A DNA stretch of 64,000 nucleotides, taken from assembly GCA_013265495.1 (NCBI GenBank), contig MU057584.1, forward strand, positions 1 to 64,000. Reading direction: 5' to 3'. The first letter of the stretch is position 1. The number at the start of each line of letters is the position of its first letter. The notes beneath the pieces were generated by a model. That model saw only the letters and a list, made by a program, of their open reading frames with translations. It was not told where the DNA came from and did not search any database. This document shows positions 526-64,000 of this stretch, in pieces. The position numbers and the translations under genes were made by a program. This stretch comes from Vicugna vicugna. Its lineage: Eukaryota.

Positions 526-738
<213 letters not shown>

Positions 739-2552: not shown

Positions 2553-2634
2553 GTGACATTGTGCCTACACCAGAAATTGGCACATTGTAACTGACTGTAC
2601 TTCAATTTGAAAAAAAATTTTTTTAATTAAAAAA
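2553..2634 (+). mobile_element. Very short 5'-truncated L1 tail with target-site duplication (TSD)
   Basis: acaccagaaattggcacattgtaactgactgtacttcaat followed by an A-rich tail. Flanked by aaaagattaccttct at 2538-2552 and 2635-2649. Confidence 0.8.
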
Positions 2635-3358: not shown

Positions 3359-5206
<1,848 letters not shown>

Positions 5207-8045: not shown

Positions 8046-8312
8046 TATGTCTTTGACTTCTAACTTTTACCTCACTCTGTGAGACTTGGTGTGGTTCTAA
8101 ATTGGTTTCATTGATGTTTAGTGGATAGGCACCTACTGGACTACTTCTTGGTGGCTGTAACCATGCAAATCAGAGACCATATTATACATCCAAAGGATAT
8201 GGTGGATATTCCATGGATTCATTAGAGTCTCATGCTCGTTCCTAACTAAAATCTTGAAGACACTGGACACAGTATTCACTTGTCCAGATCTCTGCATTCC
8301 TTGTCCTTAGAG

Positions 8313-9105
<793 letters not shown>

Positions 9106-13325: not shown

Positions 13326-14269
13326 CACTTCATTCCATGAAACATTATATAGCCATCATTTGGATGGAGTTAGATTTTCATTGGCTCATATTAGAAAATG
13401 TCTAGCTCATACTGAGTTGAGAAAAACAGATACAGAACATGAGACTTCATTTAAAAATATGTATGTTGATAGGTACATGTATATTTACTGGGAGAAAAAA
13501 GTCTGGTTATCTTCAAGGGAAAGGAGTCAGAGTGTGTCCCCTCCCGTCTTTATTTTGCTTTATACTGTTTTTAATTAGTGTAATTTAATTTCAGTAACAT
13601 GTTTTCAAATCGCTAACTATAATAAAGATATTTTAACCAGAAAATATAAAGGAAAAAACAATATAAAGCGTGCTCCCTAACCTACAGAATCCTCCTGTGT
13701 TCGGGCAGTAAATCATAGGCTTTGGGAGTCAGAATGACTCCAACGCCAAGCTCTTCAGGCATTATACTTGCTTTGAAATAGAGGACAATTTCTTAACTTC
13801 TCTGAATTGTGGTGTTTTTCCCTCCAAAGTAGGGATAATAATAACTTAAATGAAACGTTTAAATTAGGGAAGAGCGCTTTTCCTTCAGGACAAGCTTCCA
13901 TTTTGGCCCTCTCAAGTTGCTTTTCCTGCGAAACCGGTGATAGGTACCACAGGGTCTGGAGTAATGGCTGGTACCAGCTTTGCTCCTCATTGCCCCTCCC
14001 AAATCATTCTACCTCATCTATTCGTTAACCTCTCAGTTTTAGCCTCACATCGTGGGATTATACTAAAATCATCCTCCTTTCAATCACCTAGTTTTCCCCT
14101 AAACAGCCATTCCCCATTAATTTCTCGAAGATTGTATCTCCTCACTTGTTCACTTTCCAAAAATACTCCTGCCATAATTGGAGGCATTTCGACTTCAGAA
14201 AGTCGTGTCTATAGAATATTTTCGCTGGACGACTAGGGGAAAGGTAACACCGCCTACTAGCTCAGGCAT

Positions 14270-14820
14270 CAACGTGACCGCCCCGGAAGTCGGGAGTGTG
14301 GGATTTCCCTACTCTTCTTCCCGGAAAGTGAAACTCTGGACTTTTTTTCTCTTTTTCCCCAGCTCTGGCATTCAGGGAGGTGTAGTCCAGGCGCTCTGTG
14401 TAGTCGCTTGCACTTCCGCTCAGGAAGGCGGCTCTGGTGGATTCTGGGAAGTGTAGTCCAGAAGCAACGTAGACTCTTCGGCACTTCCGTTCCTGAAGTG
14501 AGAGGTTGATGGTGTATTTTCCGTGAGGTGCGTCAGTTCCGTGTCTCACTGGCTCCTCCGAACTTCCTGGATCTATGCTTGGGACCCGCGACGACCCGGC
14601 AGTTGGTTTAGGGGAAAAGAATCCACGGCAGAGAGCGCAGGTATGGGGGCTCCTAGGGCGGCGGCGTCCGTTCCCCTCGGCGGAGCCTCGGGGCGTTTGA
14701 GGCATTCTCACGACCCAGAGAGAGGGCGGGCTTTGGTCGCGTATCCGCTGAGTTGAGAGTTTCCGCGGCTCTCCGCTCGCGCAGTCCGCCTCCCTGCATC
14801 TTCCACGCGTGCTCCTATTT
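14270..14820 (+). promoter_or_regulatory. ZNF234: ZNF234 CpG-island promoter and non-coding first exon
   Basis: CpG-dense. ZNF143/THAP11-type motifs (reverse ACTACAnnTCCC) at about 14369-14388 and 14440-14459. ETS/GABPA sites: ccggaagt at 14283, cacttccg at 14411 and 14482. Candidate donor cag|gtatgg at 14641. Confidence 0.85.
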
Positions 14821-15419
14821 TCCTCGCATTGGGAGTTAATCTCCTTGTGCCTCCTGTTGCTTTTCTTTATAATATTAGGCTGTTACCTTCCTAATAGAAT
14901 TCTTTTGGGAATTGAGAGGTGGTACACCTAGAAGTCTAAACCAGTTCCTGGCTCGTAGTGAATGGTGATCTCTCCTTAGTGTTGTTTTCCCCACGAGCGG
15001 TCAGGTCCCCGGGTTAGGGTCAGAGATACAGCTTCAGTGAGTGACCTTATTCTTTTCTCTATCCCTGCGTGACACTGGATCTGACTGCTTCTGACTTTTT
15101 TGAGGGGGAAGGTGAGGGTTGCTTTCAGATTGCTCGGGGGGAGTGGGGAGACTTTTAACTTTCATCCGGGACCGCGACTCGATTGTGGCATTTCATAGCA
15201 TTCGTTCTTTCCCCAGCGTGACTTCTCCAAAAGGACTACACGGAGGTAGAGGCAGTGACTCCAGGGCTACTGACAGCAAAGCTCCGCCTAAGTGGGACTT
15301 GACACTTCTTTTACAATGATATTCACGTCAGTCAGAGGATGTGTAGGATGTGTAATTGGACACGGGTATTGATAATAGTTGATTCTTAACTACTAACTTC
15401 AACGATGACAGCTTTATAC

Positions 15420-20169: not shown

Positions 20170-20322
<153 letters not shown>

Positions 20323-22130: not shown

Positions 22131-22341
22131 GGGTTTTATGGGATGCTACATGGATAGTGGCCAACTAGACCTCTTGGTTTCCATTGTCAGGCAAACCAGA
22201 ACACACGGTACACAATGGAAGAGACAAACTGAACATTCTCTGGACTCATTCTAGTCTCACACTCTCTCCTGAATGTGAAATCTTGAAAACCCTGAACAGA
22301 GCCTTCAGTTGTTCACGTCTCTGAATTTTGTGTCTTTACAG

Positions 22342-24209
22342 AAGGAAAGATCCCAAGTGAGATGGAGGCTGTTCCAGAAGCAGGACCACATGGAGAGCGT
22401 CCCTGCTGGCAGATGTGGCATCAGATTGCCAGTGACTTAAGCAGGTGTCAAGACTTCATGATAAAAAGTTCTGAGTTCCCTAGGCAAGATGACTCACCTG
22501 GCCAGGGTGGGGCAGGACTGGCTTTAACTCACACAGGCCAGAAACTTTATCCATGTAATGAGTGTAAGAAACCTTTCAGCGATGTCTCCCACTTTGATCT
22601 TCACCAACAAATGCACTCAGGAGAGAAGTCTCATACGTGTAGTGTGTGTGGAAAAAGCTTCTGTTACAGCTCAGCACTTCGTATTCATCAGCGAGTCCAC
22701 TTGGGAGAGAAACGCTATAAATGTGATGAGTGTGGGAAGGAATTCAGTCAGAACGCACAGCTGCAAACTCATCAGAAAGTCCACACCGTCGAGAAGCCAT
22801 TCAAATGTGAGCAGTGTGGGAAAGGCTTCAGCCGTCGGTCCACACTTACTGTTCACTGTAAATTACACACAGGAGAGAAGCCTTACAATTGTGACGAATG
22901 TGGAAGGGCCTTCATTCATGCTTCGCACCTGCAGGAACATCAGAGAATCCACACTGGGGAGAAACCGTTCAAATGTGATATATGCGGTAAGAACTTCCGC
23001 CGTAGATCAGCACTTAACAGTCACTGTATGGTCCACACTGGGGAGAAACCGTACAAATGTGAGGAGTGCGGGAAATGTTTCACTTGTAGCTCCAATCTTC
23101 ATATCCACCAGAGAGTCCACACGGGAGAGAAACCTTACAAGTGTGAAGAATGCGGTAAGTGCTTCATTCAGCCTTCACAATTTCAGGCTCATCGGAGAAT
23201 CCACACTGGAGAGAAGCCATATGTATGTCAAGTGTGTGGTAAAGGCTTCATTTACAGTTCAAGTTTTCAAGCCCATCAGGGAGTCCACACAGGAGAGAAA
23301 CCATACAAATGTGGTGAGTGTGGGAAGAGCTTCAGGATGAAAATCCATTATCAGGTCCACCTGGTCGTCCACACAGGGGAGAAACCCTACAAATGTGAGG
23401 TGTGTGGGAAGGGCTTCCGTCAGAGTTCGTATCTCAAAATCCATCAGAAGGCCCACAGCGTAGAGAAACCTTTTAAGTGTGAGGAGTGCGGGCAGGGCTT
23501 CAATCAGAGTTCCCGACTCCAGATTCACCAGCTGACGCACACCGGTGAGAAACCATACAAATGTGAAGAGTGCGGGAAGGGATTCAGTCGTAGAGCAGAT
23601 CTTAAAATTCACTGCAGAATCCACACAGGAGAGAAACCGTATAATTGTGAGGAGTGTGGGAAGGTTTTCAGTCAGGCCTCTCATCTCCTGACCCATCAGC
23701 GGGTCCATAGCGGAGAAAAACCATTCAGATGTGAGGAGTGTGGGAAAAGCTTCAGCCGCAGCTCACACCTTCAAGCCCATCAGAAAGTCCACACTGGAGA
23801 AAAGCCGTACAAATGTGAGGAGTGTGGGAAGGGCTTCAAGTGGAGCTTGAATCTTGACATGCACCAGAGGGTCCACACGGGAGAGAAACCCTACAAGTGT
23901 GGGGAGTGTGGGAAGCACTTCAGTCAGGCCTCGAGTCTTCAGCTTCACCAGAGCGTCCACACTGGGGAGAAGCCGTACAGATGTGATGTGTGTGGGAAGG
24001 TCTTCAGTCGGTCTTCACAGCTTCAGTATCACAGGCGCGTTCACACAGGGGAGAAGCCTTACAAGTGTGAGGCATGTGGTAAGAGCTTCAGCTGGCGCTC
24101 CAATCTTGTGAGTCATCACAAAATTCACACAGGCGATGCATTTTATGAAAGTGACGAGAGTGGTCAGAACCTCAAGGAACTATCAGAGGAAGGAAGTCCT
24201 ACAGAATGA
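22342..24209 (+). CDS. ZNF234: ZNF234 spacer and finger exon (19 C2H2 fingers)
   Basis: Acceptor tttacag|AA is in frame with ORF 22362..24209. Diagnostic fingers [18 protein letters not shown] and [13 protein letters not shown], and the tail [19 protein letters not shown], match human ZNF234 as recalled. Confidence 0.92.
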
Positions 24210-28689: not shown

Positions 28690-30100
28690 TGGCTCATTCT
28701 AGTAATGTCACTTTCCATATGGTAATCACTAACTTGTAATGGCATAGGTTCATTTAGCCTGTTTTGTATTTTATATAAATGGAATTATATAATATGTACT
28801 ATTTTGTGTCTAGCTTCATTTGCTCAACATTATGTCCATGATGTGCATCCATGTTGTTAGGAGTGTATAACTGATTCACTTTCATTGGTGGATATTATTG
28901 CAGTGGGTAAACATACCAAAATCTATTTATTCATTCCGTTAGTGATGGATATTGGCTAATCTTTCCATTCACAGTTAGTGCTGATGTGAACAATCTAGAA
29001 CATGTCTTGTGCCTAATGTATGATACACTTTATTTGAGGGATCTTTCTATGGTTGGAACCAGTTATAAGGTGTATGTTCAACTTTAGTAGATATGGTTGA
29101 CCCTTGAAGAACATACAGGGTTTAGGGGAAGGAAGGAAGAGAATGAAAGAAGAGAGAAAGAAAAGGAAAGGGAGGGAAAGGAAATTGTTGATAGGTGAAT
29201 TATTTTTTCTAAAAATATATCTCATCTAAATTTACATATACATTTTTATAAAGTTGTTCACCACATCCTCCTATATTTAATGATGGTCGCTTATAAAATT
29301 TCTGACTTTGGCAGTTTTTCATATCTGTCTTTTTTCTTGGTCATTCTCACCACACTTTTTATCAGTTCTATTGTTTATACATAGGATGATCTTTTGATGT
29401 GTGTGAGTGTGTGTGTGTAGGACCTACTTTATTTTGTTTGTTTTGTATTTCACGAATCTGCTGTTATTTTCTACCATCTGCCTTCTTTGGCTTATTAACT
29501 TCCTGAAATGGATGTTTTCTGAATCAATTTTCAGCTTCCTTTCTATTTTAATACATGCATTTAAGGCTCAACATTTTCCTCTATGTATGTGTTAAAATCT
29601 CCAGAACCAATTATGAATTTGAATCTTTCTTTTAACGGCTGTCAATTTTCCCTTTATAAAGTATGAACTGAAATTATTAGTTTCTAGTAACTTGAAACTT
29701 TTATCACTATGAACTGTCCCTCCGTCTGTCAAGTAGTATTTTTTTTTCCCCTTAAAGTTCACTTGGACAAATATCAGCATCACAAATATTATAATTACAG
29801 AAATAACTTGAGACTTAGGATGATGGTATCTTTCTTTTCTAGAAACGATTTTCACTTGCTTCTGCAAGGGTTGGAAAATGCTAACAAAACACGTTCACCT
29901 TTCCGCAGTTTCAGGGATTGAGGTGTTTTGGCGTTTGACTTCAGTTCCTGCCGAAGAAAGCCCAGTTTCCTCCTGCTCTTTTTCCAACGGTGAAACTCTT
30001 TGGCGTTTAGAAAGAGGCCTCTGCGGTAGGCAATGCATTTATGTCGTTTAGCACCCTTGAACGTGTCCAAAATGCTACTGAGCTTGTAAGCCTTAAAATA
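28690..30100 (-). mobile_element. Ancient L1 (L1ME-like) fragments upstream of the ZNF226 promoter
   Basis: tttatataaatggaattatataatatgtac...ttcatttgctcaacattatg and further T-rich L1-like sequence. Homologous to 47200-48040. Confidence 0.55.
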
Positions 30101-30129
30101 AACAGAATCTACACTCTTCTAAGGCCGAC

Positions 30130-30720
30130 ACGCGAACAAGATTTTTGCCCCACACCTTCTCCGGGATTCCGGGAAGTGAAAACCAGGAGCGTAGGGCACT
30201 TCCGCGTCACCCAGCGAGGCTTCGCCCGTTAGCGCAGTCCAGGAAGGCGGTACTGTAGCCAGGGCACACACGCTCCCCTTGCATTCTGGGACATGTAGTC
30301 CAGAGCTCTGTGTCGTCCCACATACTGCCGCTACAATGAGGCCACTGTAGCCGGTTTCCCCGTGGAATTCTGGGAAATGTAGTTCAGGTGCTTCGGATAG
30401 CGGCAGGCACTTCCGCCCCAAGAGGACAGCGTAGCAGCCATCTTTTCCCTGATTAGGGTGATTCACGTCAGCTATTTATGATCTGTTCAGACTTCCCCAA
30501 AACGCGCCTGGGGCCAACATTAGCGACCTTTCATTTGGGGAGAAGGAGGAGAAGCGGCTCAAGGCGGAGGTTTGGGGATCGAGAGTGGTGGTGTGCGTCC
30601 CCCTGGGAGGAGCTTCTTTCCGTTTGATGCGTCCCCGGGATGGGGCGGGCTCAGATCGTGCTTCTCGGGTTTGAGGGTCTCCCGGGCTTGAGGGTCTCCC
30701 GGGCTTAACGCACCACTAAC
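30130..30720 (+). promoter_or_regulatory. ZNF226: ZNF226 CpG-island promoter and first exon
   Basis: ZNF143-type motifs gcattctgggacatgtagtcc (30281) and gaattctgggaaatgtagttc (30365). ETS cacttccg near 30197 and at 30408. YY1-type gccatctt at 30437-30444. Confidence 0.85.
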
Positions 30721-31103
30721 CCTCTCCCATCTATGAGCTAGCCCTACCACTTCCTACGGCATCAAACTAGGTGAGTTACTTAACCCCTCTGTGCCTCCAT
30801 TTGCTGCTCTGTAAAAGGGAGATAAAAGTAATGCCTTCCTAATACAGTGTTTTGAGAAAAAAGGAGACAATACAAGTAAAAGGTTTACAGCGGCCTGACG
30901 CCTTGATTGTTGTGATTAATACTACCGTAATTCTCCGAGAAGCACCCATTTCTCAGTGAGGTTCTGTGAGCGTAGGAAGGTGAATTGTCCTGGACTCGTG
31001 ACCTGTTTTGGAAGGAGAGAGCTTCTAGCTGGTAGCGGAGGGTATGAATTACAGGGGATGGAAACACAATCCTGGTATTTCACAACCTCCTTTCCTTCCC
31101 CAG

Positions 31104-37039: not shown

Positions 37040-37166
37040 GAGGCAGTGACCTTCAAGGATGTGGCTGTGGCCTTCACAGAGGAGGAGCTGGGGCTGCTGG
37101 ACTCCACTCAGAGGAAGCTGTACCAGGACGTCATGGTGGAAAACTTCAGGAACCTGGTCTCAGTGG
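37040..37166 (+). CDS. ZNF226: ZNF226 KRAB-A exon (127 bp)
   Basis: Bounded by tgcag|GAG and GTGG|gtgag. Encodes [42 protein letters not shown]. Confidence 0.93.
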
Positions 37167-37770
37167 GTGAGGACAGCCTTTCTCTGGAGTGTCTTTGTGA
37201 CCTTGGTGTTTTAAGGCTTTGGGACCCTTAAAATGGTTCCTTGAGTTTGGGGACCAGACTGCCAGTTCCTGTGCAACACAAGGGGGTCTTTCTAAACAGG
37301 ATGTTTTAGGTCTTTTTCTTTTGTGTTTTGTGGAAGAACTGTAAATGGATAGGATGCTGCTGCACCTTGTCTGTTCTTTTTCAGGTTTCACTCCTGTCCC
37401 TTAGTGGATTAGGAAGCCAATTTATTGAGTCCTACGTGCAATTTTTAAAATACAGGAAATATCAGCGCTCTTAGGAAAGGTAGAACACGCTGCAGCAAGA
37501 ACTCTGGCCAATTGCATGAGTGGTGTGAGAGCCAGTGGGAACAGATTTAATGAAAATAGAAATTGCTTAGAAATAGATCATTCAGCCTTCATTTTAATAA
37601 TACATATTTTTACACATCTGGGTCATGAAGTAAATGCTGTTTCTTCAGTGGGTCACGATACAAAGTTTGAAAGACACCGCTTTCAATCTCTTGAATACAC
37701 AGTTGGAGATCAAATTTCCAGTGAATTTTAGCGCTAGAATGTTCACTTTAACTTGCGACTTTGTTCTCAG

Positions 37771-37863
37771 GACATCAACCCTTCAAACGAGATACATCAC
37801 ATATAGAAAGAGAAGAGAGGCTTTGGATGATGAATACAGCATCCCAGATGGAGAGAAATTTTG
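37771..37863 (+). CDS. ZNF226: ZNF226 KRAB-b exon (93 bp)
   Basis: Bounded by ttctcag|GA and TTTG|gtaag. Encodes GHQPFKRDTSHIEREERLWMMNTASQMERNF. Confidence 0.88.
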
Positions 37864-38903
37864 GTAAGAACCAAGCGGTTACGAGTTCTCGTAATTAATT
37901 CTCTGTTTTGCTTCTCATCATGCCAGTGCTGTCCGCCACCTGGTCCAGATCAGAAATCTCTTTCTCAGGTTATTGCATGGTCTGTACTGGTTGCCTGCTC
38001 CTACCCTTCTCCTGTAGCCTGTTCTTTAAGTGGCAGTCAGACTGATCTTTTTTGACTCTAAGGCAGGTTACGTGAGTTCTCTATTCAAGATTCTCTTATG
38101 GCTTATTTTACTTAGAGTAAAAACCACCTAAAGGTGGCTTCTTGAGTCCTCTGTGGTCTGCTGTCTGCTGTTCGGCCCCCACTACCTCTCTGAGTACATC
38201 TCCTATCCTCCATCTTGGCTCTGTCTTTTTCATCTATATTGTCCTCCCTGCTGCTTCTCAGACCTGCAAAAGATGCTTATGCCTCGCGGCCCTTTATGTG
38301 TCCACCTCTCTGCCTAGAATACTCTTTCATCTGTAATCCTTCAGGCCTCTTTACTTCATTCAGGTCACTCACTTTTAATGTCATAAGAAGGCTGTCCTTG
38401 ACCATCCTACTGAAACTACAGTCTTCTGTTTATTATTCTCTCTGCCCTGCCTAATTTTGCATCCAAGCATTGGTCATCACTCAGGTATATTTTTGTTCAT
38501 TTGTTTCTCACCTCTCTCCTCACTGGAGGGTAATCCCCAGGGGTAGAGGAATTTTGTCTGTTATGGCAGTGTCAAAGCTATGAGCACAACAAAACGCTTG
38601 CCTTTACTGGTACTGCGTTGTGGTAGGAGTGGCATGTTAATTTTTGAAAAATGACTTAAATAGTATGTCAGATGGTGATTTTATTTTAAGTGGGTTTTAT
38701 TAATGCTAAATATTTGGGAGTTTAATGGACCATCTCTTGATCTTTGTCAGTATACAAACCAAAGGACTTCATAGGTGGTGAAAAAGAAAAGACGAACCAT
38801 CCTGACATTCATTAAAGTCTTATACTGTGTCTTAAGTGTAAAGTCTCAAATCTGTAAATAGAGCTATCAGTTGTCCACATCTCTGAGTTCTCTGTCCTTA
38901 CAG

Positions 38904-41056
38904 GAGAAGACCATGCAAGTGAGTTGAGAACTGTTCAAGACAGAAGATCACATGAAGAGCTTTCCTGCTGGCAAATCTGGCAACAGATTGCAAATGACTT
39001 AACCAGATGTCACGACTCCACGGTAAATAGTTGTCAGTTCCACAAACAAGGTGATTCCCCCTGCCAGGTTGGGGTAGGGCTATCGATTCCAATTTCTGAA
39101 GATAAGAACTATATATTAAATGATAAAGCAGATGGTCCCAATGGTACAGGGAATCCAGAGTTTGCCCAGGATTCTTGGAGGAAGACTTCCTTGACCAAGT
39201 TGCAGAATTATCAAGACGGATACCAGCAAATTTCCATGAAAAATAAAGCCACCACCAGTTGGATTTCTCATCACCTTGATGATCATGGAGTATACAAAAG
39301 TGCAAAGTCTTACAGCCACAATGATTATGGAAAAGACAGCATAAGGATTTCAACATCAGATCAGAATAGAGTGATTGGCACAAGACAAAAACCCTACCAG
39401 TGTCATGAATGTAGAGAAACCTTCACCAGTCTCTCCACCTTTGATCTGCACCAGCAGTTACAATCAAAAGAGAACTCTCATGTGTGCCATAAGTGTGGAA
39501 AGGGCTTCTGTTACAGCTCAGTTCTCCGCATTCATCAGAGAGTTCACATGGGAGAAAAACACAGTAAGTGTGATGCATGTGGAAAGGAATTCAGTCAGAG
39601 CTCCCATCTGCAAACTCATCAGAAAGTCCATACCATAAAGAAACCATTCACATGTGAAGAATGTGGGAAAGGCTTCAGTCGTAGATCAGCACTGACTGTT
39701 CACCGTAAAGTCCACACAGGAGAGAAACCTTATAATTGTAAGGAGTGTGGGAGGGCCTTCAGTCAAGCCTCTCATCTTCAGGACCATCAGAGAGTCCACA
39801 CTGGGGAGAAACCATTCAAATGTGATGCATGTGGTAAGAGCTTCAGTCGGAATTCACATCTTCAGTCCCACCGGAGAGTCCATACAGGAGAGAAACCATA
39901 CAAATGTGAGGAATGTGGGAAGGGTTTCATTTGTAGCTCAAATCTGTACATTCATCAGAGGGTCCACACAGGAGAAAAACCCTACAGATGTGAGGAATGT
40001 GGTAAAGGCTTTAGTCGGCCTTCAAGTCTTCAGGCCCATCAGGGAGTCCACACTGGAGAGAAATCATACGTATGTAATGTGTGTGGTAAAGGCTTTACTT
40101 TGAGTTCAAACCTTCAGGCTCATCAAAGAGTCCACACAGGAGAGAAACCATACAAATGTGGTGAGTGTGGGAAGAGCTTCAGGATGAAAATCCATTATCA
40201 GGTCCACCTGGTCGTCCACACAGGGGAGAAACCCTACAAATGTGAGGTGTGTGGGAAGGGCTTCAGTCAGAGTTCATATCTTCAGATCCATCAGAAGGCC
40301 CACAGCGTAGAGAAACCTTTTAAGTGTGAGGAGTGCGGGCAGGGCTTCAATCAGAGTTCCCGACTCCAGATTCACCAGCTGACGCACACCGGTGAGAAAC
40401 CATACAAATGTGAAGAGTGCGGGAAGGGATTCAGTCGTAGAGCAGATCTTAAAATTCACTGCAGAATCCACACAGGAGAGAAACCGTATAATTGTGAGGA
40501 GTGTGGGAAAGTCTTCAGGCAGGCCTCAAATCTTCTTGCCCATCAGCGAGTCCATAGCGGAGAAAAACCATTCAAATGTGAAGAGTGTGGGAAAAGCTTC
40601 GGTCGGAGTTCACACCTTCAAGCCCATCAGAAAGTCCACACTGGAGAAAAGCCGTACAAATGTGAGGAGTGTGGGAAGGGCTTCAAGTGGAGCTTGAATC
40701 TTGACATGCACCAGAGGGTCCACACGGGAGAGAAACCCTACAAGTGTGGGGAGTGTGGGAAGCACTTCAGTCAGGCCTCGAGTCTTCAGCTTCACCAGAG
40801 CGTCCACACTGGGGAGAAGCCGTACAGATGTGATGTGTGTGGGAAGGTCTTCAGTCGGTCTTCACAACTGCAGTCTCATCAGAGAGTTCACACAGGGGAG
40901 AAGCCTTACAAGTGTGAGGTATGTAGTAAGAGCTTCAGTTGGCGATCAAATCTAACAATTCATCACAGAATCCATGCTGGTGATAAATCCTACAAAAGTG
41001 ATAGGGGTGATAAGACCATCAGAGAGTCCACTCAGGAAAAAAGTTCTATAAAGTGA
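38904..41056 (+). CDS. ZNF226: ZNF226 spacer and finger exon (18 intact plus 1 degenerate C2H2 finger)
   Basis: Acceptor ccttacag|GA is in frame with ORF 38924..41056. Fingers SRNSHL, ICSSNL, SRPSSL and TLSSNL, and the tail [25 protein letters not shown], match human ZNF226 as recalled. Confidence 0.92.
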
Positions 41057-46963: not shown

Positions 46964-47110
46964 AAAAAATTACTTATTTATTTAATCTTTTGGGGGGGAG
47001 GAGGTAATTAGGTTTATTCATCTATTTATTTAATGGAGGTACTGGGGCTTGAACCCAGGACCTCGTGCATGCTAGACATGCACTCACCACTGAGCTATAT
47101 CCTCCCCTCC
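46964..47110 (-). mobile_element. tRNA-derived SINE (Vic-1-like)
   Basis: Perfect 17-bp TSD taaaattttcaacattt at 46947-46963 and 47111-47127. Confidence 0.88.
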
Positions 47111-48099
47111 TAAAATTTTCAACATTTTATCAGTAAGTGTTATGCGTGATTTTTATTTGTTTATTTCAGTTTTAAGGGGGATTTTTCTAGGAACTTATAA
47201 CCATTTTACATAGTTTTCAAATTTATCATAATATTCCTCATAATGCTCTCTTCATATCTTTAGTGATGTTTCATTTTTAATTTTGGGAATTGGTAATAGT
47301 GTCATTTTTGTCTTTGTTTCTTGGTCACTCTTACTGGACTTTGTCAATTTTATTGTTTTATTCACAGAATGGTCTTTGGCCCTTTTAAAAAAATACACTT
47401 ATCTTGTTTGTTTTCTGTTTCATCAATCTCTTATCTTCATCATTTTCTTCCATCTACTTACTGCATTTTTTGTTACTAAGTTCCTGAGAAATGTTTTCAC
47501 TTTCATATTCAGCTTCTCTTCTATTTTAGTATATACTTTTAAAATTCTACAAGTATGTATTAAGAATTCTCTTTCTAATTGTGAATTTTGTTTTTCTCCT
47601 TGTGGTTCTGTCAACTTTTCTTTTTAAAGTTTGCTTTATATTATGTGAAGCTGTTATTCTTGATAGTTTAAAACTTAACGAAGTCTTTTCTTTGTATTTC
47701 TTATAATGCATTTTTCTTCGAGGACTACTTTGTCCAATGTTAATATATTTTTAGATTATAGAAATAATTGGAAACCTAGGATGATGCTCTCTTCCCTAGA
47801 GAGGATTTTCCTTTGTTTCTGTTAGGTATTTGAAGATACTAACAAACAAGGTTCACTCTAATGCAATTTCAAGTGCGGCGGTAATTTGGAGTTTGGTTTC
47901 AGTCTCTATCAAAGAGAATTCATTTCCTTTTATCCGTCTTCCTATAAGGCAGCTCTTTTGGGTTTTACCGCAGACTCCTCTCTTCCCCATTCAGACCTCG
48001 TCCCAAGCCCCTTGAACGTGGCGAAAGTGCTGCTTAACTTTCAACAACAGAATGGGTAGGAGTCACCCAGGAAGACACTAGCAGCTCACAACAGCACAA

Positions 48100-48620
48100 C
48101 TTGGCCGGGCCCCGCGCAGGCACCGTAGTAATCAGTCGGTAGAAGCTCAAGGTACTTGGGCGTCTTTCCGCTTCAGGGGGCGGGGCCGTGGCCGTCGTTT
48201 CTCTCAGGCATTCTGGGAAGTGTAGTCTCGTGTCCGTGCGACCCAGAGCACTTCCGCTCCTGGACGTCGGGGGTAGGGAATTCTGGGAAGTGGTCCCCGG
48301 GCTCCCCCTAGTAGCCTCACTTTGGGTGGATGAGTCTTCTATCATCCGGGCTTCTCCACACCTGGGACTTCCCAACCCTGGGCGGAGAATCAGCGAGGCC
48401 CGGGCCCTCGTCCTCGGGGAGAGTAAGAGAAGCTGCGGCCGGCTGCAGAGCACGGTGTTGGGGAAAGTTTGCGTTCCCCTCCGGTGAACCTCCGGTTTGG
48501 AGCAGTCTGTGAGGCCCCGGCTTGGGGGGCTGCCTTGGTCACCTGTCGCCTGATTTGCGGGCCTCCTGGCTCTTCAACCGGATTCCCTCGCCTACGAGCC
48601 GGCTTTGCATCTTCCTAGCG
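48100..48620 (+). promoter_or_regulatory. Distal CpG-rich promoter, a probable alternative ZNF227 start or an orphan promoter
   Basis: ZNF143-type gcattctgggaagtgtagtc (48208), ETS cacttccg (48249) and a second partial site gaattctgggaagtgg (48278). Candidate donor ga|gtaaga near 48423. Confidence 0.7.
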
Positions 48621-51099
48621 GAATAACATGCGAGTTACTTAATCTCTCTTGGCATCATTATCCTCATCTAATGTCATTAATAGTAGTAACCCCTTATCAT
48701 TTTATACGAATTAATTCATTAAGTGACTGCAACAGCCTTATGAGTTAGGTAACGCCATTAGGCTCTGTTTTGTTTTGTTTTGTTTTAAACAGATAAAGAA
48801 ATGGAGGTTGTGTTGGGGGGATAAAGCATACTACCAACGCAAAGTCCTGTGTACCCAATGTAGAAAAAAGAAAGCAATCTTATTACTGAGTAAGCATTTC
48901 TAGAGTACAGTATTGTAGATTATTTGCCGAAAGATATTACAAAGAAGGGAATTTAACCCTATTTATATAGTCAAGCAATTACAAGCTTTTTCTACTATTC
49001 TATTTTTAACCACTCGATACATACATTCTCAACATTAACGGTATCTTGTCTTCCAATAAGAGGTCGTGACTGTCCCATTTGCTGCAAGTTCTTTGATAAA
49101 TTCATCTTAAATTTACTTGGGAGTCGGATCTTTGTTAATTGACTTCATCCAAAGGAATAATAAAATTTATCTTATTTCCTCTGCCAGCACATTTACAGCT
49201 CAGAGAAAGGCACCTTCGTCAAACTCCCACAGTGATAGGGACACTGGATTGTTATTTTCTCAGATGTTTATATTCAAACGGGACAAACCTCAGGACTTTG
49301 CAAAACATTCTTGGATTGTAAACTTGGTAAGAAGCTTACTTAACCTTTAACAAAACTTACATGCATATCAAAAAGGTTAGGGAAAGGATCTGAAAGCACT
49401 TGGATTCTTATGGAAATACTGTAAGAAAAAGGACGGAAAATGGACCCTTTGGACAAAGAAAATTCTTTTTTATGTTTTTCATTTGCTCTTAGTGAGTTTA
49501 TCTTATGTGCCCAAGACTTAACAGCTAGTAAGAGGCAGAACTACCACTTGAACCCAAAGAGTTGGAACCCCAAGTCTGTGTTTTTAATCTCTATTTTTTT
49601 TAATCATAGGAAATAGTCGTGTAAATGGTTTAAGGAAATCTTTTTCTATCAGGTTTGGAAGGTGGTTTGGGGCTTTGTAGTTTATATCTTCATTATAGAA
49701 GGAATGTATGCTCATTATGCAGAGATTATGAAATACAGAAATATAAGAAGGAAAGAATCCAAATTACCCATAGTCTTGGGGTTTGAAAGTAACCACTGTT
49801 TACATTTTTAATGCATTTTGTGTTGGAGCTGTACTACGCATGATATTTCTTCTTTAAATTTTATTAAGAAACAGCCCAAACATACACAAACAGAAAATAG
49901 TGTAATGAAACCTGCCCCCCTCCATCAGTCATCTGCAACCCTTGTCATTGTTTTGCTTGTCTTTTTGTATCCATTCCCTTTGTCACACAAAATACTTTTG
50001 GGGGATATTAAGGGGAGGAGGAGATGGAATCATTCAAATTAAAAACAAACCCCAGTCATGGAGTCACTATTCAAAATCCACTAACATAAAATGATTAAAA
50101 ACGGAGAGCAAAGGGAAGGCTCTTTGTTAACTTCACGGTTTTCATTCTTGGCAACCAGGAGGATGGTAGTTACATATGTAAGAAAGCTAAGGGACATAGA
50201 AATATTGAAATTTGAAGAGGAATAATTATGAATTTGGTTTCTTAAATTGGAGTTTGACTTGAAACAGTCTTCTAGATCTTGGTCTCTGATCTGTTTCTCC
50301 CTTAGGCTTTGTGCTACTTTGTTGCAGCAAGAATGTCACAGTCTTTAAAGTGTGGTTAGCACCCAGCAAAGAGACGCTCTTCAGCGTTTGTGGCTGGTGA
50401 GGCTGCCCAACATCCTGCAACAGGGACCTGCAGCCCAGTTAGATTTTATTCAGAATTCCTGAAATGGATTTCGGAAACCATAAAGGGAAATCATATAAAC
50501 TTTATCGATCCTAACAAGCCACGAAACAGGCTGTTCCCGTTAGCATCAAGTTTAAAGTTAAATTATATACAAGCTAGAATGACTTCCCCATATATCAATA
50601 TGTGAAAATTTCTTCCATCAGTACATTTGAGCAAATAACAAGTCTTTATTGTGACTGTTGTATAAACACTTAACAATAACGTGTTCATCTTTCAAATTCA
50701 GAAACTTCCCGAGGAATGATTACAACCGCCCTGATTGTATTGAGAAATTGATCACATAGGTCCATGCTGAAGCTTGCCTTTTCACCCTATGTCTAGCTGT
50801 CCTTAGCAGCCAAGTTCTGAATTATTTGACTATTCTGTTAACAGTAGTGGAAATTTACAATATAATCTGTCCCCATTGGGGAGAGGGGGGTTTTTCGTTC
50901 TTTTTTATATCTAAAAAGTGTCTAAAACTTCATTTTAAAGGCTCTCAATTTTTCTTTTTTCTTGTAGAATAGGTAAAATTCTATTACAATGATCTGTTTC
51001 TTACAGTCCTTTTAAGATTATGACTTTTCAAATATATGCTATTATGTTTTGTTTGTCAATGAGAAAAAGCTAAATTCTACTGGCGTCAGAGAACTGCTT

Positions 51100-51900
51100 C
51101 AGGCCGGCGGGAAACCATAAAGGGGATTCGTGAAGTTGTTGGCCAAGAACTTCCGAGAGATTGGGGTTGTTTTGAAGCTCCGAAGGCGCGGGCGTGTCCC
51201 TCACTCCTCTTGCTGTTCTGAGAAGTGTGTTCCCCGAGTTCTATCCGGAAACAAAAGGCTGAGGCACTTTTGCCTGGCGCTTCTGGGAAGTGTAGTTCCG
51301 GAGCTCAGTGTAGTCAGTGGCACTTCCGCCCTTGGGAAGCGAGACTGCCACCATCTTTTCGGTCCGGGAGGTGAGTTAGCCCTGAGTCCCTACGACCCCT
51401 CTGAGCCTTTTCGGCCTGAGCGTGGGACTAGTCGCTACCTAGCCGGCTGTCTTAGGATGGTGAATCGCGGCCGCCGGCGGAGGCTGAGAGGCGGAGGGCA
51501 GAAGTGTGGATTCCCTCAGCTCTCTTCCCCCACTTACCAAGCAGCGCTGCTACTTCTATCGGTACAATATATGGCGAGTTGTTTATTATCTGTGCCCTAC
51601 TTTTCTCCTATAAGATAGCGAGAGAGACAGTAACTACTAGGTAGGGGTGAGATGAGACGTGAACGGGACCACAAGCGTCAACAGCGTAGAACGCTGGTGG
51701 CACCTAACGGGTTGGCTCTTGCTGTTGTAGATCCTGTTAGTTTTCTCACCAGCGCAGTTTCTGTTGGACGCCCCAGTGAAGGGGAGAGCGAGGAGCAATA
51801 CCGCGGCCCGCCTGTCATCCGTCAGGAGACTGAGCTCCTTCCGAACTTTTACTGATCCCTTTTTTAGGAAGCATCGAGTCACCCCGCGTCAGTGCCTGGA
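51100..51900 (+). promoter_or_regulatory. ZNF227: ZNF227 proximal CpG-island promoter and first exon
   Basis: cttctgggaagtgtagttcc (51280), ETS cacttccg (51321), YY1-like ccatctttt (51351) and a strong donor ggag|gtgagt at 51371. Confidence 0.85.
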
Positions 51901-52230
51901 GATGTTCGCTGAAGTTTATCCGGGAGACAGATACAGCCTGGCTGTCCCACCGCATCCTTCTCTTTCCACTCCTGAATTCGCAGAGGGGAAAAAGGAGGGA
52001 CTTCTTGGCTTCTCACAGCCTAGTCTCAGGTACATACTCCTTCCTGAAGGTTCCTTCTTGCTCCATCATCTGTTTTCAGTTAATCAGGTTTCCTTCAGTC
52101 AGTAAATTACTGCTAGGACAATGTTTAATTATTTGTTGAATAAACCTGAGAATGTTTACTCTGCTTGTTAATATGTACGTGTGTATTTCCACCACACAGA
52201 TACATTTTTAAATAAATACGTAAGTTTTTA

Positions 52231-56657: not shown

Positions 56658-56822
<165 letters not shown>

Positions 56823-56949
56823 TGAATCCCAGCCGCCTTGAGATCTCTGGTCCTCAGTTGTTCAAAGCTTTGGACTTTTTGAAAGGGCTCCCTGACCTTG
56901 AAGACACAAATCTTTCTAATCCATAGATTTTTCTGGTCCCTCTCTGCTC

Positions 56950-57160
56950 AGGCAGAGTTCTGTTCAGGGGTGATTTTGCCTCCCTGGGAACACTTGACAA
57001 CGTCTGGAGACAGTTTGGATTGTCACAGCTGAGGGTGGGGTGCTACTGGCATCTAGTGGCTAGTGATGCCGTTGACGTTCCGGCAGTGCCCGGGACAAGC
57101 CCCACCACGGAGCAGCAGCCAGTCCGGACTAGCAGTAGCGCCTCTGCTTAAATGAACTGT
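56950..57160. mobile_element. MER20 hAT DNA transposon
   Basis: ggggtgattttgcctccctgggaacacttgacaacgtctggagacagtttggattgtcacag...gtgctactggcatctagtgg. Confidence 0.8.
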
Positions 57161-57576
57161 AAACGGGCAGCCTAGTTTCTCTACTTTGTCTTGCAAATAC
57201 TTTCATGGGTCATGGAGTCCACTGAGTACATTGTACTGGCGTTACTTTCTTTGGTTGAATCAAATAGAATAAAATAGAAAAAGAATAGAAAGGATCAGCA
57301 TTCCTTCTTAAGACCTCACGTTGCAGCAAAACTGACCATTAGCAGTACTTGGTGGGAGGGTGTGGGGACTATGATGAAAGCAGGCAATTCTGGCTAAATC
57401 TGATTTGATCTCTTATTTGAACGTGAACTAGGTCATAACTTGAATTTATTTCTTATTGCAATTCATAGTCAAAAAGTTCTTAAAATATCACTTGAGAGGC
57501 CTGAGGGTTATAGAACTTGGACCGAAGTCTGTATGAGCCATGTATTCATCTGAAATGCGTGTCTGTCTTTTCAAAG

Positions 57577-57672
57577 GACATCTTCCCTTCAAACCAGATA
57601 TGGTGTCCCAGCTGGAGGCAGAAGAAGAGCTTTGGATGACGGAACGAGAAACGCAAAGAAACGGGTGTTCCG
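57577..57672 (+). CDS. ZNF227: ZNF227 KRAB-B exon (96 bp)
   Basis: Bounded by tcaaag|GA and TCCG|gtgag. Encodes GHLPFKPDMVSQLEAEEELWMTERETQRNGCS. Confidence 0.9.
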
Positions 57673-58784
57673 GTGAGAACCGCGCTGCCGTTCTTTCAGG
57701 TACTTGCCCACCCGCGTCTCACCGCGCCCACGACGTGGTTATCACCCTTGTCCAGGCACTGTCGTCTCTTCCCTGGACTCTGACAGCTGCCTCCACGCTG
57801 GTCTCCGTGCTTCTGCCTTTGCCCTCCTTCTTCTTTCACTTCTAGTAGCCAGAGTGGTTCTTTAGAACACCGTTCCTCTGTCCCAACCCTCCCAAGGCTC
57901 CCCGTTTCACTCACAGTCCTACGTGATCTGGCCTCCTCACCAGGTTCCTCTTGGCTCTCCCATCCTTTCACCCTTGTGGGGATCATTCCTGCCATCCTGG
58001 CCACTCAGTGTTCGCCTCTGTTTCCTGGCTTTGGACTAGCTCTCCCCTCTGCCTCGGTGTGCAGGTCCCTGGCCACGCCCTTACTCACTTGGGTCTTTGC
58101 TCAGATTTCATGTCATCAGACAGGCCGTCTGCGTCTGCCCCAGGTGAAATATTGTCCTCTCTCCACTCTCTGTCCTCTCTCCACTCTGCCTTCTGAGCCC
58201 TGATCACCTCGTGCCCTGGTAACCTATTTTTGTTCACTTGTTCATCACCCGTCTCCCCATGAAAGTAGGAGTTTGGGCAGTTTGATTTGCTGTCAAGGTT
58301 TCTGTTCCTGATCTGAATGAGTATAACTTGGAGACAGTAGCCTTCTTGAATAGTTAGCGCCTTTGTTGGATGTATTGAGAGAACCCAGATTGGTTGGAGA
58401 GATGGCAGCAGTTCTCGGATGTAGATTCAGGACTTGGAGAATCTGTTACTCATCGTATTATTTGAAATAAGTCACTTTCCTGTATGCCTTGGTGAATACA
58501 TTTTAAGTTTTCTAGTACATGCTGGGGGAAAAAAGGCCTCTGATGGTCTGTTTGCATAGTAGGTGCTTAACACATACTTGTGGGATGAATAAATTGTTTT
58601 AAAAGTTACTCCTGTTTTGAGCAGAAATGAGGACTCTCCTGACAGCTCCTCCTAACCTGTGAGCCCCGCCTGCCCTCTCCGTGGCGAGCACCTCATCCAG
58701 GTCCCCAGCGGCCGTCTCACTGCTCTGCCTTGGCTTTCAGTGCCCTGTTGCCCTGCCTTCTCTCAGTTCTTCACTTTTTAACTT

Positions 58785-59165
58785 CACTTTATTTATTTAT
58801 TCATTTATTTATTTTTTATTGTAGTATAGTTGGTTTATAATGTGTTAGTTTCTGGTGTACAGCGTAATGATTCAGTCATGCATGCATGTATATATTCCTT
58901 TTCATATTGTTTTTCATTATAGGCGATTGCAAGGTATTGAATATAGTTCCCTGTGCTGTACAGTAGGACTTTATTATTTATCTATTTTGTATATTGTGTG
59001 TGTATCTGCAAATCTCGAACTACCAGTTTATCCCTCCACCCTCCCCTTCGCCCCGCCAGTAACCATAAGTTTATTTCCTATGTCTTTGAGTCTCTGTTTT
59101 GTAACTCAGTTCGTTTGTATCTTTTTATTAGATTCAACAAATAACTGATATCATATAGTATTTAC
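58785..59165 (-). mobile_element. L1 3'-end fragment
   Basis: (ttta)n tail followed by L1 3'UTR. A + strand L1 tail also lies at about 59990-60160. Confidence 0.82.
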
Positions 59166-60494
59166 CTCACTTTTTTACTCCTTTCCTTTTTCTCCACGTC
59201 TTTCTTTTCTCTTTGCATATTCTGCAGTTCTACCCATTTAAAAATATCAGCTCTTCCTAGGGAGTGTAAATTTATATACTCTCCCTGTCTGAAAAACAAA
59301 GCAGAGATGCTTCTCTGCAAATGTGATGGATTAGGCCCTGAATTCTGTGAGTAGGCGGTGGATACAATTCGTCTGCTCCTGTCCGTCTCCCTTCTTGTGT
59401 GTGTACATGAGATGTGCACTTGGTGTATTCAGGAATGTGAGACACTTGCTTCACTTTACCGAGGCTCATCTTCATAGGCAAACTGAACCTCAGGAATCGT
59501 GATTCTACGTATTGTCACGTTTCAGTTTGGTGTGGTAGACCAAGTCTCTCTTTGAATAACTCTGGTAGCTTTTTCTGCTGCCCTTTCTGAAGGGTTTTTT
59601 TTTGACCTCCTCAACATCAGTGTGTTTCTGGGTTTTGCAACCATGCTCCATGTTCAAATGCTACCTAAAATACTCTTTGTAGGTCGCCTGAGCGCAAATT
59701 GAAGGGCTTGTTTATGTAAGAATTCTTGAAACCCGAAACCCTGCAGATCACAGAGACAAGAGGATCTCATGTCTCTGTTACCTCTAGCGATGGCTCCTGG
59801 GCTTAGAGCACACGAGTGTGATTAAATGGATAATTTCAGAACTTTGTCTTCCAGTGAACTTGTAACGTAATTATGATCTTTTAGACATCTTCAAATAAGT
59901 AAAGATTCACACTTACTAACCATAGAAGATAAAAGCTGTTTACAGTTATCAGAACGTATAACTACATTATCAAAAATTATCAATACCACGGAATAGAGCA
60001 TCAAAGTCCTACTGGGTAGCACAGAGAACTATGTTGTTCAGTGGCTTGCAGTAACCTGTGATGAAAAAGAACATATTTACATATATACCTGAATCACTGT
60101 GCTGTATACCAGAAATTAATACAATATTGTAAATCAACTATATTTCAACAAAAAATTTACAAAAGTTACCAACACCAATATGCCAGGCATTACAATTCAT
60201 CGGTTCTCAGGTAGCAATTTCAAGTCAGCTGCTTATGTGAAAACTGCCTCATCTGTGCGGCTGGTGTCCCACTGGTACCTCAGCACCCAGGACCTAAGCA
60301 GTCATGTAACATACACGGTAGCTCTGCGTAGATTCCGATTGGATATTTCCAGAAGTCAAAAGGCACTGGCATATGTGGAGATGAAGAGTCCTGGGTAGGA
60401 AAGAAAATTACAGAATTTCTAAATAAGTTCTCCAGTGTAACTTGCATCCTAGTGGTATTAACTAGTTGATGTCACAGGTGACACAAGAAGCCTG

Positions 60495-61075
60495 TTACAT
60501 GTTGCAGAGCGTTCTGATCCCAAACCTCCAAGATTCACCCCAACTTTACAGATTAAGGGCACAGTCCTCCACAAGACTGCCCTCCAAGACTTCAGGCGCC
60601 AGCTGGGGTTCCCTTCTGACCCAGCTGGCTATAGATTTGTGGGTTCTGATGATAGTTGGCTAGAATGGCTGACAGAAGTCAGGGAAGTGCTCTGCTTAGA
60701 GTTAACCATTTCATTATAGCAAACAGTACAAATTGGAACTGGCAAAAGGAAGATGCATAGGGTGAGGTCTGGGAGAGTTCCCTCCCTTCTGCCTCTTGTA
60801 AGGACCCTTGTGATCAGTTTGGGCCCATCCAGAGAATCCAGGGTAACCTCATCTCAAGATCCTCAAAGCACTCAAATCTGAAGTCCCTTTTGCATGTTAA
60901 CTTACAGTTAATTAACTGGACAATTAATATGTTAATTGTATAATTAGCTGTACAATTAATATGTTAATCACACAGTTAACTGCACAATAAATATGTTAAT
61001 TGTACATTGACGTAGTCACAGGTTCCAGGGAATAGGGCATGGGCATCCTGAGGGCATTGGATTCGCCTGCCTCAC
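60495..61075. mobile_element. MER21-like and MLT1-like LTR fragments
   Basis: ttaagggcacagtcctccacaagactgccc is MER21-like. aaggacccttgtgat...gggcccatccagagaatccagggtaacctc...aagtcccttttgc...cacaggttccaggga is MLT1-like. Confidence 0.65.
60905..61005. repeat. AT-rich palindromic minisatellite, about 3 copies with a 32-bp period
   Basis: acaat(t/a)aatatgttaat recurs at 60920, 60952 and 60984. Confidence 0.8.
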
Positions 61076-62374
61076 CCAGAAACTTGCACGTACCTGTTGA
61101 GACTGTTTCAGTGTGTATTTGAATGTAACTTTCCGTTTAAGCAAATGAAACATTAAGGACTTGGTACCCCCATCCATACTTTAAGCCAGTGGCTTCCATG
61201 CATTTTTAACTATGCCCCTCAATAAGGAATACTTTACATCTCACCCCAACATAAATACAATGTATGGGCATATTTGTGTGTGTGTCTACAGCTGAAACAA
61301 GCATCTCCTATAGTGGTACCCTTTCCACTTGTAATGCACACTTCATGTTTGTATTCTTTTAATTTTTCTTTTCATGTGTCACAAGGTCGGGAGTGGGTTT
61401 CACAGTTCACTCATACATGCCAGCAAGTTAAAAAAATTCTGTCACATCGGGGCTAAAGCAATGAAGAAGACAAAGGGCATGTCTTCCTCGTGTCTTTTCC
61501 ATTCTGATGGGTCTAAAAAGACGAGCACAAATGAGGAAGGCTGGAGGGAAGCAGAGAATAAGTGCTGCAGGGAAAAGTAAAGCAGAGTAAGGCAGAGGGG
61601 AAGGTGAAGGTGTGCGCAGCTGGGGAGGAATGACTTTCTGCTGGGTGAGGAGGACGCCCCCCCCCTTGACTGACATGTGCGTAGAGAGACCTGCAGGGAG
61701 TGAGAGGAAGGGCCAGCTTTGCAGCCCTCTGGGAGGAAGCTTTCCCAGCGGAAGATGACTCTTCCCTCTCTCCCACTTCAGGGCTGCCTTTGAGAATCTG
61801 GACGGTGCCCTGTTTCTTTCCTTTGCCCAAGTGCTTTCTTAGCCACAGAAGATGAGTTTTTCCCTTTTCCACTTCTTTCAACAGAGACCTAAATTACTAC
61901 CAGGTTTAGAACAATGCATATAATTATTCCAACCACTTCCCAAGTTTTCTCTGGGAATATCCTATCTACGAGGACCTAAAATACCTTCGTAGGCCCATAG
62001 CCTGAGCTTTTGGGACCTAACTGGGTAGAAGCCCACTTGTCCTAAGCCTGCTGAGGAGAAAGTGAGTAGGCTTTTCATTGATGTTGCTGTAGGCTGGAAT
62101 GTGGGTTGTCTTGGTTTCAGCCTTAGAGCCCAGGTATTAAACTGTTAGACTTACAGTTCTCAGTGGGTCACATGTACAGAAGAGTCTGTTGACTTCATTC
62201 TTTGCTTCCACTTGTACAGAAAAACATAACAAAACGATAAATGGTGTTATACAGACATGTCCCTTCCCCTGGCCTATTAAGGCCTTATCTCCTGGCCTAA
62301 GTGTGAAATCCTGATACTGATACTGAACAAAGCATTTACTTGTCCTGGTCTCTGAATATTGCCTTTTCTCATAG

Positions 62375-64000
62375 GCAACAGGAATCAAAATGAGATGGAG
62401 AATCTGCGAAAAGTTGCATTAAAATACATTTCATGGGAAGAGCCATCCTGCTGGCAAATCTGGAAACAGGTTGCAAGTGATTTAACCAGGGGTCTTTACT
62501 GGAAGAGTTCCCCATTTCTACAGGGCGATTCTGTTCAGGTTTCTGAAAATGGGAACCATGTAATGAATTGTAAAGGAGATAACTCCATTTGCCTTGAAAA
62601 TCAAGAGTTTTTGGTGTCGAGAACACAGGATTCTCGTGTGAACACCTACCTGAGCGAGGCACAGAATCAGAGTAGAGCTGAGCACATCAACAGGAAAAAT
62701 GACCTGCGTGTGTGTGAAGGCTTCATGAGGAAACCACCACTCAGTGAGCCCGCTGAGACTGACATGGACCAGAAACCCTCCAAACATAACGGATGTGGCA
62801 GGAGCCTTGGTGACAGCTTCACTCGGCACTGCCCCTTAGGAGAGAGGCTCCTTCCATGCAGAGAGTGTGGGAAAGGCTTCAGTCATCACTCTGTGCTGCC
62901 AGCTCGCCAGAATGTTCACACAGGAGAGCGATGGCCCCGTCAGAGCTCACACCTTCAGACATGTCTGAGGATTCCCCGAGGAGAGAAAGTCGATGAATGT
63001 CATGAATCAGGTGACTGTTTCAGTAAGACGTCTTTTTATCCTCATCAGTCTCATCATATGGGAGAGAAGTCCTATCGGTGTGGCAGTTGTGGCAAAGGGT
63101 TCAGTAGCAGCACAGGGCTTACCGTCCACTACAGAACGCACACGGGAGAGAAGCCTTACAAATGTGCAGAGTGTGGTAAATGCTTCAGTCAGAGTTCAAA
63201 TTTTCAGTGCCATCAGAGAGTCCACACAGAAGAAAAACCATACAAATGTGAAGAGTGTGGGAAGGGCTTCGGCTGGAGCGTTAATCTTCGCGTTCATCAG
63301 AGGGTCCACAGGGGTGAGAAACCCTATAAATGTGGAGAGTGTGGGAAGGGTTTCACTCAGGCCGCACATTATCACATCCATCGGCGGGTCCATACTGGGG
63401 AGAAACCTTACAAATGTGATGTCTGTGGCAAGGGCTTCAGTCACAATTCCCCTTTAATATGCCACCGGAGGGTCCACACCGGAGAGAAACCCTACAAATG
63501 TGAGGTGTGTGGGAAAGGCTTCACCCGGAATACCGATCTTCACATCCATTTGAGAGTCCACACGGGAGAGAAGCCCTACAAATGTAAGGAGTGCGGGAAG
63601 GGCTTCAGTCAGGCTTCCAATCTTCAGGTCCATCAGAACGTCCACACTGGGGAGAAACGATTCAAATGCGAAACGTGTGGGAAGGGCTTCAGCCAGTCGT
63701 CAAAGCTTCAGACCCATCAGAGAGTCCACACCGGAGAGAAGCCATACAAATGTGATGTGTGTGGTAAGGACTTCAGTTACAGTTCAAATCTCAAACTGCA
63801 CCAAGTGATCCACACCGGAGAAAAACCATATAAATGCGAGGAGTGCGGGAAGGGCTTCAGCTGGAGGTCAAATCTTCACGCACATCAGAGAGTCCACTCA
63901 GGAGAGAAACCCTACAGATGTAAGGAGTGTGATAAGGGCTTCAGTCAGGCCATAGATTTTCGGGTCCATCAGAGAGTCCACACTGGAGAGAAACCCTACA
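62375..64000 (+). CDS. ZNF227: ZNF227 spacer and finger exon, open to the window end (11 intact fingers visible)
   Basis: Acceptor ttctcatag|GC, then the frame [18 protein letters not shown]. Fingers SSSTGL, SQSSNF, GWSVNL, TQAAHY, SHNSPL, TRNTDL, SYSSNL and SQAIDF match human ZNF227 as recalled. Absent from the ORF track because no stop codon lies within the window. Confidence 0.92.

Follow-up and report, generated by a model that had tools for sequence, protein, structure and literature searches.

Finger 10 of the KRAB zinc-finger gene ZNF226 in Vicugna vicugna has the helix residues of the neighbouring gene ZNF234, and it is very probable that interlocus gene conversion, polarised by outgroups and seen in a single assembly, swapped a base-contacting residue of this finger. 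In the history that we propose, fingers 10–18 of the two genes, a pair older than the human–dog split, have been repeatedly homogenised, and on the branch to vicugna a tract templated by ZNF234 would have run through the helix of finger 10, turning Arg-1/Ser+2 of ZNF226 into Met-1/Ile+2. The mechanism may have been a break that was repaired from the misaligned paralogue.

The window analysed here is a 64,000-nucleotide stretch of vicugna DNA with five KRAB zinc-finger arrays, four of them intact and one decayed. The paralogues ZNF234 and ZNF226 lie in tandem on one strand at a distance of 16.8 kb, with ZNF234 just upstream of ZNF226, an order that is the same in human coordinates. Both are KRAB C2H2 genes in which a KRAB-A exon lies upstream of a single exon encoding the spacer and the tandem fingers. 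The exons were placed as follows.

20170–20296, forward strand: KRAB-A exon of ZNF234, from a motif scan.
22342–24209, forward strand: spacer and zinc-finger exon of ZNF234, 19 fingers in an open frame; the splice acceptor possibly lies 3 bases later.
37040–37166, forward strand: KRAB-A exon of ZNF226, from a motif scan, with AG/GT ends judged by eye.
38904–41056, forward strand: spacer and zinc-finger exon of ZNF226, 19 fingers in an open frame; the splice acceptor was judged by eye.

From stop to stop, the zinc-finger frames span 22296–24209 (ZNF234) and 38858–41056 (ZNF226). To assign the genes we used the fingerprint of each finger, defined as residues -1, +2, +3 and +6 and taken from supplementary table 2 of PMC3971581. 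That table lists both genes for human and dog, and the pair thus predates the human–dog split. Eight fingers (4, 5, 6, 8, 9, 10, 14 and 18) were picked by eye as diagnostic, being the same in human and dog ZNF226 and different in human ZNF234. The exon protein of vicugna ZNF234 is 91.5% identical over 589 amino acids to the gray whale protein P0007 (which carries no name) and has the human ZNF234 fingerprint at seven of the eight diagnostic fingers; its residue +6 of finger 6 is unlike human and the same as in whale. The spacer of the ZNF226 gene (37040–41056) shares 76% identity with P0218, an orangutan ZNF226 isoform with a chimpanzee protein in its cluster, and 55% with the Peromyscus ZNF226 cluster. 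Its fingers follow the human and dog ZNF226 fingerprint series at seven of the eight diagnostic positions and are ZNF234-type at finger 10 alone (by eye).

Some smaller features of ZNF226 were also recorded. Both concern the first two fingers at 39401–39550 (forward strand) and the spacer. In finger 1, Gln stands where the last zinc-binding His would be. The C2H2 finger 2 is intact in vicugna, whereas the human domain list (PMC13541613) leaves finger 2 out. In the spacer (39150–39260, forward strand), two short in-frame segments of about four and eight residues are absent relative to P0213 and P0214, as judged by eye.

The alignment of the ZNF234 and ZNF226 zinc-finger exons is gap-free, with an offset of 16,847 bases, and the arrays differ at 207 of 1,596 bases. 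Counted per 84-base finger, there are 14–25 differences in each of fingers 1–9 and 20 in finger 19; fingers 11, 14, 15 and 18 have 5, 9, 6 and 8, and fingers 10, 12, 13, 16 and 17 have none. The identical tracts, with the helix codons of interest, are listed here.

23281–23417, forward strand: candidate donor tract in ZNF234 (finger 10), at the offset of 16,847; Met-1/Ile+2 also occurs in human ZNF234 and gray whale P0007.
40128–40264, forward strand: candidate recipient tract in ZNF226, covering the end of finger 9, the whole of finger 10 and the start of finger 11, with 0 of 137 differences from ZNF234.
40184–40192, forward strand: helix codons -1 (Met), +1 (Lys) and +2 (Ile) of ZNF226 finger 10, which are ZNF234-type residues; human and dog ZNF226 have Arg-1 and Ser+2.
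40286–40509, forward strand: second identical tract, 224 bases, the end of finger 11 and fingers 12–13; the Thr codon of a QLTH motif is at 40382–40384.
40610–40866, forward strand: third identical tract, 257 bases, the end of finger 15, fingers 16–17 and the start of finger 18.

The 137-base exact match is bounded by mismatches at 40127 and 40265, and a run like it appeared in none of 20,000 codon shuffles stratified by within-finger position. The 137-base tract has no synonymous differences in its 43 codons, against 59 of 181 in fingers 1–9, 15 of 251 across fingers 10–18 and 7 of 15 in finger 19. The identity of the two genes at finger 10 is real and not a product of chance. The preliminary description of this DNA had claimed it, and rightly so: 137 of 137 bases match, and both genes encode the peptide that it quoted. 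Two other origins of the shared finger were tried and rejected. Copying within an array does not account for it, as ZNF226 finger 10 has no differences from ZNF234 finger 10 and differs at 23 or more of 84 bases from every other finger in the window's four intact arrays. Nor does a recent duplication of the whole gene, given that fingers 1–9, finger 19 and the 3′ flank have diverged between ZNF226 and ZNF234.

An artefact of assembly or polishing would also produce an exact match, if ZNF234 reads placed on ZNF226 had overwritten the helix in the consensus and the living gene kept Arg-1/Ser+2. We consider this improbable. It is in keeping with the use of one assembly, with a tract about as long as one short read amid near-identical sequence, and with the exact look-ups in the protein collection, in which none of the nine Met-started open frames of ZNF226 and ZNF234 had a match. 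Polishing would be expected, however, to have erased the clusters of differences at fingers 11, 14, 15 and 18 too, and these persist. Fourteen public runs contain 0.87–0.90 of the sampled 31-base words of the ZNF226 exon. This has no bearing on the helix, because finger 9 and the finger 10 helix are 57 bases apart and cannot be linked by words of that length.

The direction of transfer follows from the outgroups. Finger 10 of human ZNF226 has Arg-1, Ser+2, His+3 and Val+6, and the dog ZNF226 orthologue (Cf0145) has the same four residues, while human ZNF234 has Met-1, Ile+2, His+3 and Val+6 (PMC3971581). The gray whale ZNF234 (P0007) has the RMKIHY helix, with Met and Ile, and is the sole protein with the finger 10 peptide among the 289 fetched. 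The exchange appears non-reciprocal: the Met/Ile of vicugna ZNF234 is also that of human and whale, and fingers 9 and 14 of vicugna ZNF226 are still ZNF226-type. Arg/Ser in human and dog ZNF226 and Met/Ile in human and whale ZNF234 together indicate that ZNF234 sequence entered ZNF226 later than the split from carnivores, and a single such transfer is the simplest history supported by these sequences. The outgroup sample consists of two ZNF226 orthologues with a finger 10, human and dog, each as its four fingerprint residues.

These results partly bear out the preliminary description, which had given the human helices correctly as far as the fingerprint positions of the PMC3971581 table go, and had proposed this same direction. 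It had also named RMKIH in outgroup ZNF226 genes, dog among them, as evidence against its proposal; the dog gene has the human ZNF226 residue set there. Its statement that base-contacting residues were replaced holds at -1 and +2 and fails at +3 and +6, which are the same in both genes. The helix was not replaced as a whole, and the R of RMKIH is position -2, outside the four fingerprint positions. Its placement of the change in this lineage stands as far as a date after the carnivore split and no more finely, human and dog being the ZNF226 orthologues compared at finger 10.

Database searches gave no second ZNF226 with a Met/Ile helix among the matches listed in the protein searches, in the search of cluster representatives or in the exact look-ups. 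No full-length ZNF226 orthologue was present among the best 120 of 2,257 protein matches, the best 120 of 706 or the two of two, and long unrelated arrays and ZNF112 prevail among the protein matches listed. Among the 51 matches of a spacer search of cluster representatives, the ZNF226 fragments stop before finger 10 and the Peromyscus proteins have no finger 10. Neither of the two whole-exon frames had an exact counterpart in the protein collection, and a degenerate finger 10 pattern had no matches in metagenome contigs.

The residues at finger 10 could have another history, in which both genes started out with Met/Ile and Arg/Ser arose independently in the ZNF226 of human and of dog, or in which a point mutation in vicugna ZNF226 gave Met/Ile. 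We regard this as extremely unlikely. With ZNF226 outgroups numbering two, and with a helix type (Arg-1/Ser+2/His+3) that is common, its four-residue set appearing 157 times in the PMC3971581 table, repeated gain is conceivable. Ancestral Met/Ile nevertheless requires two identical gains in place of one change, and the Met/Ile set occurs once in that whole table, in human ZNF234. This history also leaves unexplained why synonymous differences vanish in the tract when they affect about a third of the codons in fingers 1–9.

Conversion between the two genes seems to have been recurrent. In fingers 10–12, seven residues are common to both vicugna genes and unlike whale ZNF234, compared with three in fingers 2–9, although whale alone sets no polarity. 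One of these residues is the Thr of QLTH in finger 12, a motif present in both ZNF226 and ZNF234 of vicugna; whale ZNF234 has Ile in place of Thr. The Thr codon is ACG, two changes away from any Ile codon, and separate origins of Thr in the two genes are therefore unlikely. Human ZNF226 and ZNF234 probably both have QLIH here. The preliminary description had read QLTH as a shared derived change: its presence in both genes is plain, and a derived state would fit the Ile of whale ZNF234. This Thr is not one of the fingerprint residues and falls in the stretch that separates the two zinc-binding histidines. A second pattern is found in finger 15 (40577–40640 in ZNF226 and 23730–23793 in ZNF234), where residue +2 is Ser in both vicugna genes, both dog genes and whale ZNF234 and Ala in both human genes, which requires conversion in at least one lineage.

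GC-biased conversion raises G+C over time. Third-position G+C in ZNF226 is 144 of 249 (0.58) in fingers 10–18 versus 104 of 251 (0.41) in fingers 1–9 (p = 0.0003), and in ZNF234 it is 152 of 249 (0.61) versus 116 of 250 (0.46; p = 0.0012), the two tests not being independent, as the letters are partly common to both genes. Neither of the two control arrays of the window showed a significant rise (p = 0.62 and 0.25). The raised G+C of fingers 10–18 fits long-running GC-biased conversion. Together with the human-specific finger 15 residue common to both genes, it indicates real conversion in the region, which further weakens the case for a polishing artefact. Assuming 2.2e-9 neutral changes per site per year, we roughly estimate that the two genes were last homogenised over the 137-base tract within the past 16 million years or so; discounting two-fold sites lengthens this time. 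The helix itself may have been swapped earlier. In dog, the ZNF234 counterpart Cf0146 appears ZNF234-like in fingers 2–8 of the tabulated series (PMC3971581), but at fingers 9, 14 and 18 it resembles a decayed ZNF226, possibly through conversion in the opposite direction.

The likely effect on DNA binding was judged from human data. GHT-SELEX of human ZNF226 gave two independent binding modes among 18 domains, assigned to arrays 4–15 and 10–18 (PMC13541613). Domain n of that study corresponds to finger n+1 here (checked on domains 5 and 17), so that array 4–15 includes finger 10 and array 10–18 does not. Of the 1,812 hand-picked human sites, about 515 belong to the minor mode and about 1,297 (about 72%) to the main mode, as counted by hand from the matrix denominators. 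We slid the human fingerprints along each matrix, scoring the strongest textbook contacts only. The published matrices were hand-trimmed by their authors and come without a register, and the registers given here are those of our scan. As a control, the main ZNF226 matrix scored best on fingers 13–19 (13.5, next 5.4), which lie within the array assigned by the authors. For the minor matrix the best score was on fingers 11-10-9 (9.4, next 6.5), and its core alone (the motif core being T-T-W-A-D-G-G-V-A) scored 7.3 there versus 5.9 for the runner-up, fingers 16-15-14, which are part of the main mode. In the 11-10-9 register, His+3 and Arg-1 of finger 10 face a G in 82% and 92% of sites, respectively. 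A register on fingers 7-6-5 was considered and rejected, being outside the top four scores; in addition, the ZNF234 5–7 matrix appears to have a different triplet for finger 7 (by eye). For the ZNF234 matrix containing finger 10, also hand-trimmed, the register scores were 5.7, 5.5 and 5.3, with the finger 10 register third.

If the 11-10-9 register is right, Met-1 would deprive the minor mode of its strongest contact and spare the main mode. The effect predicted from the human matrices is thus the loss of an Arg–G contact in the minor mode (fingers 9–11), with the main mode (fingers 13–19) untouched by the swap. We hold this functional step to be evenly balanced between right and wrong. The preliminary description had claimed a change in ZNF226 specificity, for which a partial change, confined to the minor mode, is plausible on the same human matrices.

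The swap may instead be real yet functionally silent, finger 10 being little used and its helix carried along by a neutral, GC-biased tract. This is compatible with conversion, and we give it slightly less than an even chance. The large share of human sites in the mode of fingers 13–19 speaks for a silent swap, as does the fact that His+3 and Val+6 of finger 10 are the same before and after. So does ZNF226 of Peromyscus (P0265–P0269, P0271–P0278 and P0215), in which finger 9 is followed by finger 18. These proteins are without fingers 10–17, almost exactly the region homogenised in vicugna, and those fingers are thus dispensable in one rodent lineage. On the other hand, human and dog ZNF226 both retain Arg-1/Ser+2, and human and whale ZNF234 both retain Met-1/Ile+2, despite homogenised surroundings, and the minor matrix scores best on the fingers around finger 10. 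A bolder reading, which we find rather unlikely, is that ZNF234 and ZNF226 are a long-lived pair that trades helices through recurrent conversion, and that here one ZNF226 mode was switched off or loosened and the other spared, the change becoming fixed as the targets of the minor mode were lost or binding them became harmful. If true, the target set of a transcription factor would have been edited one binding mode at a time.

Several other elements surround the pair. A decayed zinc-finger exon with stops and frameshifts (8208–9103, forward strand) shares 75.6% identity with the start of the ZNF234 exon and is a pseudogene of the same subfamily. Two more KRAB zinc-finger genes (514–5206 and 56670–64000, forward strand) lie on either side of ZNF234 and ZNF226; going by gene order, they are possibly ZNF45 and ZNF227. 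CpG-rich kilobases at 14001–15000, 30001–31000, 48001–49000 and 51001–52000 lie ahead of ZNF234, ZNF226 and the last gene and are probable promoters. Two of them precede the last gene, and one of these may serve another transcript. Copies of a tRNA-Ala-like SINE occur at 47034–47105 (reverse strand) and near 25950, 33850, 35650, 55720 and 56400, and ARAGORN calls one copy a tRNA gene. The consensus of these copies is presumably the camelid vic-1, an element that SINEBase describes as a simple SINE of camels (PMC3531059); on this assignment the SINEs alone would make a camelid host probable.

Specificity of KRAB zinc-finger proteins is usually said to change through point mutation and through gain or loss of fingers. 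Finger 10 of ZNF226 would exemplify a third route in nature, with its direction set by outgroups: a long-standing neighbour gene is copied in register, here across a residue conserved between human and dog. Because human binding modes have been measured for both ZNF226 and ZNF234, this reading makes a sharp prediction, namely a weakened minor ZNF226 motif alongside an unchanged main motif. Orthology assignments and dates taken from fingers 10–18 of the pair would also be misled. In a literature collection without most subscription papers, no paper was found on ZNF226–ZNF234 conversion or on the helix swap in finger 10, and the accessible part of PMC2443715 holds nothing on the pair.

Compared with the human genes (PMC3971581, PMC13541613), the vicugna pair is alike in gene order, in the 19 fingers of each gene and in most fingerprints, but its ZNF226 has a ZNF234-type finger 10. 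As a process, interlocus conversion among KRAB zinc-finger paralogues is already known. A GENECONV screen (PMC2604467) found short conversions common among poly-zinc-finger paralogues, many of the gene sets that it examined containing a few converted genes. As described in that report, its cases resemble ZNF226 and ZNF234 in having short converted regions between tandem zinc-finger paralogues, although converted genes were discarded there as a nuisance, whereas for the vicugna pair outgroups set the direction, and the change reaches a fingerprint residue. Neither gene is named in its main text. Conversion at the 3′ end of ZFX and ZFY is established (PMC5648654), and that pair likewise is old and was homogenised in its 3′ part after divergence. 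ZFX and ZFY are X–Y gametologues, however, for which the portion of that paper available to us describes no change of specificity, and ZNF226 and ZNF234 are tandem autosomal KRAB genes. In PRDM9, as in ZNF226, DNA-contacting residues of C2H2 fingers are rewritten by recombination. According to the accounts consulted, near-identical repeats are shuffled within one PRDM9 array under positive selection, in contrast to the in-register exchange between two genes that is proposed here for ZNF226 and ZNF234.
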